Notes: generated by a model not told the origin, from the letters alone. 64,000 bases of DNA from a virus (IMGVR_UViG_3300025921_000002:10997-74996), one strand, 5' to 3'; numbered from the stretch's first letter, positions 15,984 to 35,512 are shown. Numbers and translations: made by a program.

Positions 15984-16064
15984 AAAACCTATTAAGGGTT
16001 CAACCGATTGCGCCAGTCTCCCCCAAATAGGGTTTTAATGTTTTTGATGCGGAGCGCAATTCCG
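15984..16064 (-). ncRNA. candidate pseudoknotted leader RNA of the HNH-AP2 gene
   Basis: minus strand: hairpin CGGA-ATTGCGC-TCCG; stem AAACCCTATT/AATAGGTTTT enclosing GGGGGAGACTG-GCGCAAT-CGGTTGAACCC; TATATTTG promoter box upstream. Confidence 0.65.
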
Positions 16065-16108
16065 AATTACAATTCAAATATAAGTAATATCCTACTAATT
16101 TGCAATAG

Positions 16109-16291
16109 TTAACGTAAAGCCAAACTATGTCCATTAACAAACCAAAGTATAGCACCCAATATCACCAATAGGATAATAATGCCTTTAACAATGGTAGGAA
16201 TAGGCCAAATATACCGCTCGAATACCCAAAGTATGAGTGCGACAACCCCTAAGAATATCAGTAAGTAAAGAAGTTGTACGAGGATTTGCAT
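16109..16291 (-). CDS. small two-TM membrane protein
   Basis: two long hydrophobic helices separated by WPIP. Confidence 0.65.
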   Translation of the reverse strand: MQILVQLLYLLIFLGVVALILWVFERYIWPIPTIVKGIIILLVILGAILWFVNGHSLALR

Positions 16292-16370
16292 GGTGTGATA
16301 ACAAAAAATAATGTCAAAAGTTTGGACATTATTACTTTAAGTTATAGATTTATACAAAAATTGTCAAAAT

Positions 16371-32700: not shown

Positions 32701-34902
32701 TCTGTATTAGCACAACTAAAAATAAAAACCGATAAGGCAATGTCCGATTTCCCCGAAGGAAGTGAGGAACGCGATGCTTTGGCTAAAAAGCAAGCCGACA
32801 TAATAAACCTCATGGAAAAAAAGGGTTATTTAGGCGGTGAATTTAACGGGCAGTTAGCGCATGAATACCAAAACGCTGAATTAGACTTTGCCAATGTTAA
32901 AAGACAAGTTGAGGACTTAACTAAAAAGCCACTTACCGCAGGTCAGGAAAAGAAGATCAAAGAAATTACTTCTGAAAACGAAAAGCTAAAAGCACAATTA
33001 CAGGAAGCCGAAGCTAAGCTAATTGAAGAAACTGACAAGGCTTTTGAATCTGGCAAAGAAGCCGCTAAAACAGAAACCAACGCTGAAAAAGCAAAAAGAA
33101 TAGCTCAAAAACTAAGAGATAATGCCAAGCTAAATAAACCGGGCATTTTTTCTGCGGCAACACCTGCATCTTTAATTTGGGACGGTGCTATTGAAGTAAC
33201 AGCCAAAAGCATTGAAGCAGGCGGTAAACTGGCTGACGCTATTGAAGCAGGTATCAAACATATCAAAGCAAGCGATTGGTATAAAAACCTGCCTGCAAAC
33301 AAGAAAGAACTTGCTGAAAAAGAGTTTAAACGTGTTAATTACGAACATTCAGGCAGTACCGATGTAGAGGACTTGCAGGAAAGGTTTGTTGACAAAACCG
33401 ACAATAAGTTCACCCCCAACGAGGCTAAAGACATTTGGGGCTACATGAAGAAAACCTATATTGAAAATGGCACTTCATATCGGGATGCCCTTTCAAAAAC
33501 AGCCGAAGATTTAGGGCTTTCTTGGAGGCAAGTTAGCGAAGCCGTAACCACGCCAAAGGTCAAAAGAATGTCGGATGAAATGTGGAAACGTCAATCCGAA
33601 TACACCCGAAACAGAACCGCTATTAAGAATTGGATAGATACTCAAACAGCTAATCCTTTTATGAAAGCCCTTAGAAAGGTTTCAGGTGCTTTTAGGGGGT
33701 TGGCTGTATTTGGTCACGGTGGCATATTTGTTGGCACACACGCGGGTACGACAGTATTTAATCCGTCTATGTGGAATAAAACAATACCTGCTTTTTTTAG
33801 AGGTTGGAAGTTTGCCTACGGAAACGAGGGTAATTATCAGCGTTCAATGGAAGAATTAAAAAATTCTCCAAATTATCTTATTGCTCAAAGAGCGGGTTTG
33901 AAAAATAATCCTGAAAGAATAAATACAGAGGAATATCAAAAATCTCAACAATATTTAGGCAGAGCAGGATTAGCCGGAGAAAGAGGATTTAATGCCATAA
34001 AAGTGCTTCGGCAGGACTTATTTGACTATCATTTCAATAAACTGTCACCTGCGGAAAGAGATGACCCGGAAGTAGCTAAGAGCATAGCTAAATTAGTTAA
34101 TTTGGCTACAGGAGCGACTAACTTAAAAATACCATCATGGGTACAAGAAGTTTCATTTGCCGGGGGTATGGAGGGTTCAAGATGGGAAAAGTGGCTAAGA
34201 AGCCCCGCAGAGGCCGCAGATATTGCCATGAAAGCCATATTCACGCCTGACAAAGCAACTACCGAGGAGCGTATTTTTGCAAAAGTATGGGCAAGACGGG
34301 TTGGTGAGCAATTGGCCACATTCAGTGCGCTACTTTTAGCTAATTCTGCTATTCAAAATACTTTAAATCCTAAAAATCCTGTAAATTATACAAACCCCGA
34401 TAAGCCGGACTTTATGAAATTTAAGTTTGGAGATAGGACTATTGACCCAACATCGGGCATGTTAGGTGTAGGAAAGTTTATATATAAAGTAGGTAAATTA
34501 CCATTCCAAAGCGAAAAAGAATTACATGGTGATAAAAAGATTGCCGCTTTAGGTAAGGATTTGCTTCAATACGGTAGAGGAAAACTTGCTCCATTTTATG
34601 GCACGGTAGCCGATGTATTTACAGGAAGGGATTTTAACGGAAACCCGCTACCATATAGTAAGGAAAAACCGGGTAAAGGGCATCATAAATTAGGTTATGG
34701 AGAGTACGCTTTAAGTAAAGCCCCGTTGCCGGGAGCGGAAGCTGCAAATGTTACTTATAAATCAGCCGAAGAACATGGAGCGCATGTCCCTACATTGGAT
34801 GATGTGATAAAAGGATTCTGGTCAGGGGCTATTTCAGGGGCAACAGGATTTAGGGTTGGCGAATACGATGCCAACTCCCCTGAAAATAAAAAGAAAAAAT
34901 AA
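29779..34902 (+). CDS. large internal virion (cargo/ejection) protein, 1707 aa
   Basis: size, position and helical composition; no DxDxD polymerase motif seen. Confidence 0.7.
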   Translation: MGQFSWTPPSTDEPVKKTGWTPPASDIPVVEKKSPVGNASVATSTQSGDGSSPSPLQQSLTNAMKAYSITHTPKEVSDVQNTVSQQKQEDKIARTPDAVVAHEKYMETPLGKTQGAFQYVGSKASKGALQIAKGATWLYNHTSANPIQGMIDEVSNQHKGQEDFFNKADKATNLGLTATDLQNIESNKGIGASALRTAGTFAEIAPTILGGEASGAPKLAFALQGLGQGKETMDAVDPDHKVNPAIRDGFIALNGAFNAALMGDAAETNFAKMPAALRGKISSALAMDAIKQNGEKEITGELVDHTVKDFAHNFYKLGTDYVQKVARTGVDLSALQAATGLAKYGVNKASGQEVFKNPAGETAEGVSNAVLQQAPVFGAAGTVGDLSKLTPYSSFKNEVFENIVKDPSQTDAIKQEIAQHGQERGWTPEEIQATNDHIDQIKTVAQRLPETIKPEKKSDAVQLVLDRDALKKQLANEVGKRGAMDESVKDLPNAHEEWLTDKIEQANDKLRAMATGKRTTYSKGVGDEEGKFFKTTNGEKEEITENRYNLEKLERTANENTNEQEKINNNEKISNQSEQESGVQQTASGEKVAEQPGNPTESVQAIGNGSSENEERLLTTGGEQPPLKAIKNKVDEKNAQDPDFSEKNYDAWEEHRMGLEKQIFHEPIDENLPISENIKLLNKSLEPEFEKIKQVIGDDEVADKYISAIQRNPKRAEKIRNELPKDVQGKLFNRINEDDFEDNKQQTDEFEHLNSESDRDITDEMKFSWIGKKITSPSDMQKPFNRVIVKDLISQLADKGYSQEEIVRRAMQDRVSRGDNAEHVTELVKAVLEEHGKKSEPQQKQIEGGKNATKTGNIEENNQQQHQGTVGQQQGVEENRQHQEEPVAKSQTETGGSNSIEQGGQVKKTILTKRAYEGEIQLEVKKHLEEKGLTRKSFSQEERSKQATDFINKFGEEAAQKAVEAGDIDGGMAASVLAQLKIKTDKAMSDFPEGSEERDALAKKQADIINLMEKKGYLGGEFNGQLAHEYQNAELDFANVKRQVEDLTKKPLTAGQEKKIKEITSENEKLKAQLQEAEAKLIEETDKAFESGKEAAKTETNAEKAKRIAQKLRDNAKLNKPGIFSAATPASLIWDGAIEVTAKSIEAGGKLADAIEAGIKHIKASDWYKNLPANKKELAEKEFKRVNYEHSGSTDVEDLQERFVDKTDNKFTPNEAKDIWGYMKKTYIENGTSYRDALSKTAEDLGLSWRQVSEAVTTPKVKRMSDEMWKRQSEYTRNRTAIKNWIDTQTANPFMKALRKVSGAFRGLAVFGHGGIFVGTHAGTTVFNPSMWNKTIPAFFRGWKFAYGNEGNYQRSMEELKNSPNYLIAQRAGLKNNPERINTEEYQKSQQYLGRAGLAGERGFNAIKVLRQDLFDYHFNKLSPAERDDPEVAKSIAKLVNLATGATNLKIPSWVQEVSFAGGMEGSRWEKWLRSPAEAADIAMKAIFTPDKATTEERIFAKVWARRVGEQLATFSALLLANSAIQNTLNPKNPVNYTNPDKPDFMKFKFGDRTIDPTSGMLGVGKFIYKVGKLPFQSEKELHGDKKIAALGKDLLQYGRGKLAPFYGTVADVFTGRDFNGNPLPYSKEKPGKGHHKLGYGEYALSKAPLPGAEAANVTYKSAEEHGAHVPTLDDVIKGFWSGAISGATGFRVGEYDANSPENKKKK
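29870..29963 (+). other. candidate -1 frameshift/slippage site (A9) and transframe peptide
   Basis: GAA AAA AAA AGT; the -1 frame is closed by TGA at 29868-70 and then reads KKKSSWQRFCGYLNAVWRWLKSFPSPTKSY to TAA 29963. Confidence 0.5.
31487..31633 (+). CDS. nested +1-frame small basic protein (48 aa)
   Basis: MKKSATKANKKAVFSKPPAGKKWQNSPATPPKASKPSATVVAKMKKGC; A-rich start context. Confidence 0.55.
   Translation: MKKSATKANKKAVFSKPPAGKKWQNSPATPPKASKPSATVVAKMKKGC
32330..32512 (+). CDS. nested +1-frame small basic protein (MPLK...QAVAIALS type)
   Basis: MPLKPGTSKKTISSNIKEL...QKQAVAIALSKAAKSKK resembles a widespread stand-alone phage microprotein; GGAGGTAAAAATG start context. Confidence 0.75.
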   Translation: MPLKPGTSKKTISSNIKELLDSNRGSKKIGNTKKNLSLKAKQKQAVAIALSKAAKSKKQS

Positions 34903-35421
34903 TTAACACTTTCTATTTTTTCTATATTCAGCATTTCTCGCTAATACCATTTCTCTATTATTTTGGTAATATTCAGCTTGTTTTCGCTTATTACTTTCGG
35001 CATTATTTAATCGCCACTGTTTTTGATATTCCCTTTCTAATTCTACGCAGCCGTCGCACCTGCATCCATTTCTAAACATGCTTCTTGATGGACATTGCGC
35101 CGTTGGCAATCTTCCTTTGTTCTGTGCATCATTTATATTTTCTTTATTTGTGCCTATCCACAAATGAAATGGGCTAACGCATTTTCTATTATCACATCTA
35201 TGGCAAACAAACATTCCTTCTGGAATTTCTCCAATATAAAATTGATAAGAAAATCTATGTGCAAGTATTCTTTCTTGTTTTATCTTAAAATTACCATAGC
35301 CGCTTACATTTAATGGAGATTGCCATTCCCAGCATTGCGTTTCTGGATTTATAAGATATTTTTTTGTAAATCTTTCTATTGGGGATACCGCTAAATAATC
35401 CTTTCTCCCAAGTCCAGCCAT
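34903..35421 (-). CDS. HNH homing endonuclease (paralogue of 26032-26472)
   Basis: CWEW..GYG..AHRFSY..VCHRCDNRKCVSPFHLWIGTNKEN; CRCDGC; start moved to ATG 35421 because the upstream part is the RNA leader. Confidence 0.9.
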   Translation of the reverse strand: MAGLGRKDYLAVSPIERFTKKYLINPETQCWEWQSPLNVSGYGNFKIKQERILAHRFSYQFYIGEIPEGMFVCHRCDNRKCVSPFHLWIGTNKENINDAQNKGRLPTAQCPSRSMFRNGCRCDGCVELEREYQKQWRLNNAESNKRKQAEYYQNNREMVLARNAEYRKNRKC

Positions 35422-35430
35422 AGTAATAAA

Positions 35431-35512
35431 AAGTCCTGTTCCGGGTTCAAGCGATTGCGCCACTCTCCCCCAAAACAGGACTCTAAATATCTTTATTCGG
35501 AGCGCAATTCCG
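35431..35512 (-). ncRNA. candidate pseudoknotted leader RNA of HNH gene
   Basis: minus strand: CGGA-ATTGCGC-TCCG; stem AGTCCTGTT/AACAGGACT enclosing GGGGGAGAGTG-GCGCAAT-CGCTTGAACCC; TACCTTCG promoter-like box upstream. Confidence 0.65.

Follow-up and report, generated by a model that had tools for sequence, protein, structure and literature searches.

Three described systems serve as precedents for the leader RNA that concerns us here. Within the guanidine-IV riboswitch, the balance between a kissing loop and a terminator sets the level of read-through (PMC11611296), and the antisense attenuator of pT181 uses a kissing-hairpin interaction (PMC3753616). In phage T4, mobE, a free-standing gene for an HNH homing endonuclease, is held in check by an intrinsic terminator that occurs only together with the nuclease gene (PMC2790892). 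The RNA under study is a leader of about 95 nucleotides (nt), common to three loci (15975-16068 (-), 25935-26031 (+) and 35422-35516 (-)) in a window of 64,000 nt, which comprises bases 10997-74996 of the 74,996-bp IMG/VR virus record IMGVR_UViG_3300025921_000002 (hereafter G000; window positions are used throughout). The DNA of G000 is present whole in rhizosphere metagenome runs, from which it may derive. Among phage leader RNAs acting in cis, the present one represents an uncatalogued family or subfamily, and its covariation is exceptionally clear. It is best filed among the leader attenuators built on an intrinsic terminator, a function which we infer.

The arrangement is the same at all three sites, as an earlier note on this DNA had proposed. 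In order, it comprises a -7 promoter box, a small hairpin (P1), an A-rich linker, an outer stem (P2), an internal loop, an inner stem (P3), a U-rich tail and an ATG. The box follows the consensus TAnnTT(T/C)(G/A), a -7 element of the Bacteroidota type, and the leader starts 5-10 nt downstream of it. In the window copies, P1 comprises 3-5 bp and a loop of 7-8 nt, the linker measures 12-19 nt and the P2-P3 hairpin 44-55 nt. The sequence of P2 varies among the copies while its pairing is intact in all three, again as proposed; inside it lie three G-C pairs and then a 3x3 purine internal loop, with GGA opposite GAA, beyond which P3 opens with a G.U and an A-U pair and ends in an apical loop of 7-8 nt. 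The tail spans the 11-14 nt between the end of the stem and the ATG, which in each case begins an open reading frame (ORF) assigned to the Pfam family HNH_3. The ordinary genes of the phage have A-rich, not U-rich, regions 5' of the ATG. The pattern GGGGGAGA-N8-20-TTGAACCC, which describes the core of the long hairpin, matches exactly three times in the window, with spacings of 12-13 nt, and not at all in 100 shuffles.

The loop of P3 is the exact complement of the loop of P1, over seven Watson-Crick bases (ATTGCGC/GCGCAAT in copies 1 and 3, CCGCAAG/CTTGCGG in copy 2), and the contact between them is for this reason a kissing loop. Both loop pairs had been recognised in the earlier note, which labelled the fold a pseudoknot. 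This label requires correction, because the complementary 7-nt segment is the apical loop of the inner hairpin P3; the contact is loop-loop kissing and not a classical H-type pseudoknot.

Additional members were collected in stages. Viral, metagenome and genome collections, scanned with the exact pattern, returned mostly chance matches, together with true members. Covariance models R1 to R3, built stepwise, recovered L105 and one further copy each in L007 and on a Daejeonella metagenome-assembled genome (MAG) contig, all with cores outside the exact pattern, and a relaxed pattern yielded seven further members. The final alignment, A12, holds 20 members from viral records, metagenomes and one MAG contig; the three window copies score 67-89 bits with R3. 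Standard pairs occupy 91% of the helix cells in A12, as against 59% in shuffles and 27-47% when pairing partners are slid by 1-3 columns, and both sides change at 20 of the 22 nested-helix pairs. Since A12 was fitted to the model, it favours structure; RNAalifold alone predicts the same three helices, which offsets this concern. The structured, covarying RNA of the earlier note is thus upheld in a larger alignment.

The loop contact can be judged on the same collection. A match of 6-7 contiguous Watson-Crick nt joins the P1 and P3 loops in 20 of 20 members, through 17 different duplexes with 64% G+C and a mean energy of -9.7 kcal/mol, whereas loops taken from different members match over a mean of only 2.8 nt. 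None of 100,000 permutations in which loops were reassigned reached the observed match total. Ten members were found without recourse to loop complementarity (L105, L007b, L292a, L297a, L297b, L304, L298, L305, L299 and L312), and all of them proved to be matched, with a new code. These independently found members are the strongest single argument for the kissing contact. At the sequence level, then, pairing between the P1 and P3 loops is supported by covariation. A loop match alone is not diagnostic outside its hairpin context, because 20 of 139 controls also have an upstream complement of at least 6 nt.

Comparison of the whole window with Rfam 15 at gathering thresholds gave no matches, including to mepA/guanidine-IV, c4 antisense RNA, HEARO and the self-cleaving ribozymes. 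Copies 1 and 3, searched alone at E<=10, gave only chance matches to miRNA and CRISPR-repeat families (11-21 bits, against cut-offs of 39-100). The leader does not, therefore, fall into an already characterised Rfam family, the outcome that the earlier note had seen as decisive for novelty. A blastn search with copy 3 found no match in 50,697 GenBank phage records.

Other parts of the leader are conserved to differing degrees. Linker (14-18 nt) and hairpin (41-47 nt) lengths are tightly constrained across members, and the linker sequence is semi-conserved. The internal loop occurs as GGA/GAA, as GGC/AAA, as AGUA/GAA (L007b, L326) and in strand-swapped form (L297b, L315), and is missing from some leaders that precede the same helicase gene. 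Its last 5' and first 3' bases are A,G in thirteen cases, A,A in two and C,A in four, and never C,G (Fisher p 0.004), a covariation which is only suggestive, because the members are related. In the two strand-swapped cases, L297:13706-13797(+) and L315:~290-400(+), GAA/AAA lies on the 5' strand and GGA/GGC on the 3' strand, with the kissing loop and the remainder intact.

Several candidates were rejected for want of P2 pairing or of the kissing contact, namely L203, L221/L254, L236/L242, L313 and window positions 47703-47776. A loose descriptor scan of the genome, which recovered copies 1 and 2, missed copy 3 and otherwise produced about as many matches as shuffled sequence, was dropped. A related hairpin was also observed, in which the GGGGGAGA...TTGAACCC core, P2 and P3 are present, P3 carries a GAAA tetraloop and P1 is absent (L005:2700-2795(+), L217:3237-3318(-), also L033 and L237). 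It sits in an AT-rich phage, flanked by two small genes on the same strand, and scores 30-39 bits with R3; in L217, two downstream segments are alternative pairing partners for its 5' arm.

Preceded by an A-rich stretch and followed by a U-rich tail, the long hairpin has the anatomy of an intrinsic terminator, a stable G+C-containing hairpin directly before a U tract, placed 10-14 nt before the start codon. Hairpin energies among members run from -13.5 to -26 kcal/mol (median -20), and the P2-P3 hairpin of copy 3 has a fold z-score of -5.5. At least five T occur in the first 8 nt past the stem in 19 of 20 members. The distance from stem to ATG has a median of 11.5 nt, lies between 10 and 14 nt in 17 of 20 members and is always within 10-24 nt. 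Upstream, 14 of the 20 have a strict -7 box within 30 nt.

We tentatively favour, at a little under even confidence, the reading that the leader attenuates transcription by means of an intrinsic terminator, which the kissing loop would tune or gate. Transcription would start a few bases past the -7 box, placing the leader at the 5' end of the transcript, where it would fold into P1 and the long P2/internal loop/P3 hairpin, the two loops pairing by 6-7 G+C-rich bases. Most polymerases from the cassette promoter would then stop at the U tail, freeing an RNA of about 90 nt, while a set fraction would read through to yield the mRNA. The kissing contact may tune or gate this ratio in one of two ways: it could make the terminator fold form faster and lock it, or, as in guanidine-IV, compete with completion of that fold. 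It may thus promote or oppose termination. The result would be low or timed expression of self-promoted genes, here three homing-endonuclease genes in a structural module, and for cassettes antisense to late genes the hairpin may double as a two-way insulator.

Several observations weigh against this reading. The only inspectable RNA contig reads through the leader (contigs give no levels, and DNA may have been carried over). Compared with typical terminators, the hairpin is longer and has more interruptions, and it is missed by a simple terminator scan, because the 3-8 nt loop limit of the scan excludes hairpins with internal loops; U tails are interrupted in copy 2, L042 and L231. No conserved alternative (antiterminator) pairing was found. 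Finally, the tight spacing between stem and ATG would fit a role in translation equally well.

A bolder version of the attenuator, which we consider rather unlikely as it stands, would make the kissing loop the gate of a portable, sequence-programmable expression governor on self-promoted genes (selfish nucleases, methylases, replication genes), switching to read-through during infection. Candidate triggers would be modification of RNA polymerase, the speed of transcription, the pools of Mg2+ or nucleotides, or some further factor.

Copy 1 lies on the minus strand. Its -7 box, TATATTTG (16075-16082), was read directly from the sequence, and is followed by P1 (CGGA/TCCG, 16050-16064; loop ATTGCGC, 16054-16060) and a 17-nt A-rich linker (16033-16049). 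The P2-P3 hairpin (15988-16031) contains GGGGGAGA at 16017-16024, the kissing loop GCGCAAT at 16007-16013 and TTGAACCC at 15996-16003, and the U-rich tail TTTTTTTATTTTT (15975-15987) reaches the ATG of a gene for a 181-amino-acid (aa) protein (15429-15974). A rhizosphere metatranscriptome contig of 371 nt ends at 16073, 2 nt past the box, and spans the leader into the HNH ORF. It gives a weak hint of a start site at P1 with some read-through, bearing in mind that contigs show neither ends nor levels and that DNA may have been carried over. The 3' ends of this ORF and of the portal gene (13034-15469, plus strand) are convergent and overlap by 41 nt (15429-15469).

Copy 2 is on the plus strand, with a -7 box TATATTTA (25926-25933), P1 (CCG/CGG, 25939-25952; loop ACCGCAAG, 25942-25949), a 19-nt A-rich linker (25953-25971) and a P2-P3 hairpin (25972-26017) which holds GGGGGAGA at 25981-25988, the kissing segment CTTGCGG at 25992-25998 and TTGAACCC at 26001-26008. 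The U-rich tail, TATTCTTTTTTAAA (26018-26031), is interrupted. An automatic ORF call begins the gene at an in-frame ATG at 26014, inside the 3' strand of P2; the start codon is likely to be the ATG at 26032, which follows the U-rich tail and so matches the other copies. From there the gene (26032-26472) would encode an HNH_3 protein of 146 aa with a zinc-loop.

Copy 3, again on the minus strand, has a -7-like box TACCTTCG (35523-35530), P1 (TCGGA/TCCGA, 35497-35513; loop ATTGCGC, 35502-35508) and an A-rich linker (35485-35496). Its P2-P3 hairpin (35430-35484) includes GGGGGAGA at 35464-35471, the kissing loop GCGCAAT at 35454-35460 and TTGAACCC at 35443-35450, and the first three bases of the U-rich tail TTTTTATTACT (35422-35432) double as the last closing pairs of P2. 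The gene (34903-35421) encodes an HNH_3 protein of 172 aa with a zinc-loop and is antisense to its neighbours. Both minus-strand copies are in fact antisense to the surrounding structural genes, copy 1 to the portal gene and copy 3 to that of a 1707-aa protein (29779-34902). The HNH proteins of copies 2 and 3 are 45% identical and share the zinc-loop motif. Of the two nuclease architectures originally described, HNH_3 is recognised in all three proteins, while the AP2 match of copy 1 is weak (E 0.002) and below the Pfam cut-off.

Phage G004 offers a view of how these units behave. It is a relative of G000 with 24 shared ORFs, mostly of 24-63% identity, and carries the copy-3 leader and HNH gene in the same place and in the same antisense orientation. 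The proteins flanking this unit are only 32-35% identical between the two phages, while the core of the leader is the same in both and the differences in P1 and P2 are compensatory. The tail genes on either side of copy 2 are adjacent in G004, and the promoter, leader and 441-nt gene of copy 2, some 540 bp in all, therefore represent the insertion or deletion of exactly one such unit. These alignments support the view that promoter, leader and HNH gene behave as insertable cassettes, within the G000/G004 phage group only. The mobile cassette of promoter, RNA and nuclease suggested earlier accordingly holds for this group, through the insertion of copy 2 and the synteny of copy 3, and does not extend to the RNA as a whole, which is not tied to nucleases: an HNH or GIY-YIG-like gene lies downstream in 7 of 20 members.

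The genes following the leader are diverse. HNH_3 proteins of three architectures follow copies 1-3, L054, L198 and L105, and a GIY-YIG-like T5orf172/MUG113 protein follows L297b. SNF2-type helicases, alone or fused to a DNA methylase, follow L007a, L297a and L304, and L292b precedes a BT4734-like primase-type protein and then a DUF5906/VapE-like protein; nine ORFs have no family match. Conversely, among relatives of the copy-2 and copy-3 HNH genes, the RNA was found at only 2 of 80 viral loci, and scans of 50 whole records yielded no more. A fourth HNH gene of G000, of the NUMOD4 type (59474-60052 (-), start at 60052), has no kissing-loop leader; upstream of it lie a possible -7 box and, at about 60085-60125, a plain terminator.

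The RNA is rare and is carried by phages, with 1-3 copies in each, and its carriers comprise at least two unrelated phage groups and the MAG contig. A search with R3 of 150 further genomes from the same family as the Daejeonella MAG found none, with only 28 candidates scored per genome. The portal protein, used as a query, retrieved no phage relatives, and no protein is common to all of the RNA-bearing phages. The models themselves are biased towards the GGGGGAGA/TTGAACCC subtype, since R3 misses leaders with different cores: on 80 helicase-methylase loci it detected six leaders only, and inspection shows more with other cores. Upstream of the helicase-methylase gene, a terminator-like hairpin with a T tail occurs in 16 of 69 distinct regions, and 9 of these 16 hairpins have a loop complement of at least 6 nt upstream, against 2.25 expected. 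The cores of these leaders are very diverse, so that what is conserved in principle is the architecture rather than the GGGGGAGA/TTGAACCC core.

The MAG contig, L292 (Daejeonella sp., 8740 bp, from a Lake Mendota MAG), resembles a phage early or replication region. It encodes a DnaA_C-type helix-turn-helix protein as well as the BT4734-like and DUF5906/VapE-like proteins, and its leaders (1215-1308 and 4173-4267) head successive operons on the same strand. In L105, a tRNA-Trp gene (2026-2097(+)) adjoins the HNH genes of phage G007, and a T-arm-like GGTGCATGTTCGAATCATGCC stretch lies at about 1250-1310, where ARAGORN calls no tRNA.

How far other explanations account for these data varies. The nearly constant distance between stem and ATG, 10-14 nt in 17 of 20 members, would also be expected if the leader acted after transcription, with a 5'-terminal fold blocking 5'-end-dependent decay or setting translation initiation 10-14 nt downstream. 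The RNA would start at or beside P1, which would make the structure 5'-terminal, and in minimum-energy folds the linker pairs with the tail to within a few bases of the AUG. In a translational variant, the leader would fix the start of a U-rich landing site, or pair the A-rich linker with the U tail; Shine-Dalgarno pairing is not known to be used by such hosts. In the T4 family, homing endonuclease genes are known to be regulated through hairpins located at the ribosome binding site. Here, however, the ATG lies 10-14 nt past the stem and the AUG never falls within the conserved helices. Only the weak linker-tail pairing nears it, and this is confined to A/U pairs. Moreover, initiation regions in this phage are normally A-rich, whereas the tail is U-rich and resembles that of a terminator. 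We therefore regard a post-transcriptional role as somewhat improbable.

The likeness to guanidine-IV in architecture (two hairpins, a kissing loop and a terminator) raises the further question of whether the leader is a sensor, whose kissing loop would form or not according to a small molecule, Mg2+, temperature or a factor encoded by phage or host, for instance an antiterminator or an RNA polymerase that has been modified. Such a sensor would turn read-through on at a particular point of the infection, as in guanidine-IV, lambda nut/N or HK022 put. The constrained linker and hairpin lengths and the semi-conserved linker sequence would suit such a device, and the non-Watson-Crick covariation of the internal loop suggests a defined three-dimensional module. 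Yet invariant nucleotides are few, and an internal loop that is varied, strand-swapped or missing is hard to square with a single binding pocket. The kissing sequences are hypervariable where those of guanidine-IV are conserved, no match to mepA appeared in Rfam even at E<=10, and no protein is common to all of the carrier phages. A sensor is, on balance, distinctly doubtful.

A different emphasis would treat the terminated RNA of about 90 nt as the main product, or the hairpin as chiefly a two-way insulating terminator, with downstream expression due to incidental read-through. The unit is complete in this respect, having a promoter, a structured RNA and a terminator-like end; its reverse complement likewise yields a hairpin, behind which the A-rich linker supplies a U-rich run; copies 1 and 3, like L042, are antisense to their neighbours; and the P1-less core hairpin with its GAAA loop lies between two genes of another phage. 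Nonetheless, an ATG always follows within 10-24 nt, so that the link to the downstream ORF is conserved, and loop codes mostly differ among the copies of one phage, so that no shared trans target is evident. Taken together, these points leave this explanation highly doubtful.

The earlier suggestion that the leader is a small ribozyme, which would cleave itself, or serves the nuclease as an RNA cofactor is extremely improbable: a compact tertiary fold does adjoin nuclease genes, and HNH-associated RNAs exist (HEARO, the IscB omega RNA), but nothing points in this direction, as no core of a catalytic type is conserved, the variability of the internal loop, which can be flipped and is lost from some leaders, argues against a catalytic core as it does against a single ligand pocket, Rfam returns no ribozyme or HEARO match, and the downstream proteins (HNH of three architectures, GIY-YIG-like, helicases, primase-like and unassigned) are unrelated.

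Some features of the surrounding structural module may be recorded here. The longest and deepest metatranscriptome contigs in the window (17038-19318; X4, depth 22, and X5, depth 9.9) cover a gene for a 452-aa protein (17459-18817), presumably the major capsid gene, after which stands a strong plain terminator (18823-18848). At 17235-17331, a minor contig from a DNA run has 95 nt of the gene for a 350-aa protein exchanged for a diverged stretch of equal length, which indicates strain microdiversity.

Structured regulatory RNAs of phages are poorly catalogued, and the present family offers an unusually clean proof of a tertiary contact, with 17 loop codes, all matched, in compact and self-contained cassettes. 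Should the leader indeed dose or time transcription as an attenuator, this would explain how several self-promoted selfish nuclease genes are tolerated inside essential late operons; should the governor version hold, the family would constitute a new class of cis-acting timing device, widespread in Bacteroidota phages. Promoters, terminators and translation signals of the Bacteroidota differ from the Escherichia coli model, and a leader with predicted start and stop sites provides a good handle on expression signals in this phylum.

The known systems can now be set beside the leader. Like HEARO and the IscB omega RNA, it is a structured RNA beside an HNH-domain gene, but it is far smaller (about 95 nt), is not confined to HNH genes and has no Rfam match, and the HNH proteins here are of homing-endonuclease types rather than RNA-guided nucleases. 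With mobE it has in common that a selfish nuclease gene bears at its 5' end a terminator, or here a terminator-like hairpin, which lowers expression in T4 and would do so here. The mobE terminator, however, is a plain 9-bp hairpin within a coding region and mobE lacks a promoter of its own, whereas the present cassettes have their own promoter, a terminator-like hairpin before the ATG and a kissing partner for it. The guanidine-IV (mepA) motif is also a two-hairpin 5' leader with kissing loops and an intrinsic terminator just before the gene. Its conserved guanidine-binding loops and its exporter or detoxification genes are absent here: the loops are hypervariable and fully Watson-Crick (17 duplexes in 20 members) and imply no ligand, the terminator stem and kissing hairpin form one helix stack, and phage nuclease and replication genes, not guanidine exporters, lie downstream. 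In pT181 RNAI/II, finally, a few G+C-rich kissing bases decide the use of a leader terminator and the loop is an exchangeable code, as it appears to be here, where copies in one phage mostly carry different codes. The pT181 partner is a separate, trans-acting countertranscript; in the present leader a single strand carries both loops within 50 nt, and no promoter for an antisense transcript was identified, antisense transcription not having been assessed. An exchangeable 7-nt loop code joined to a terminator on a single transcript would amount to a family of compact, orthogonal transcription regulators of natural origin, such as synthetic biology had to engineer from pT181.

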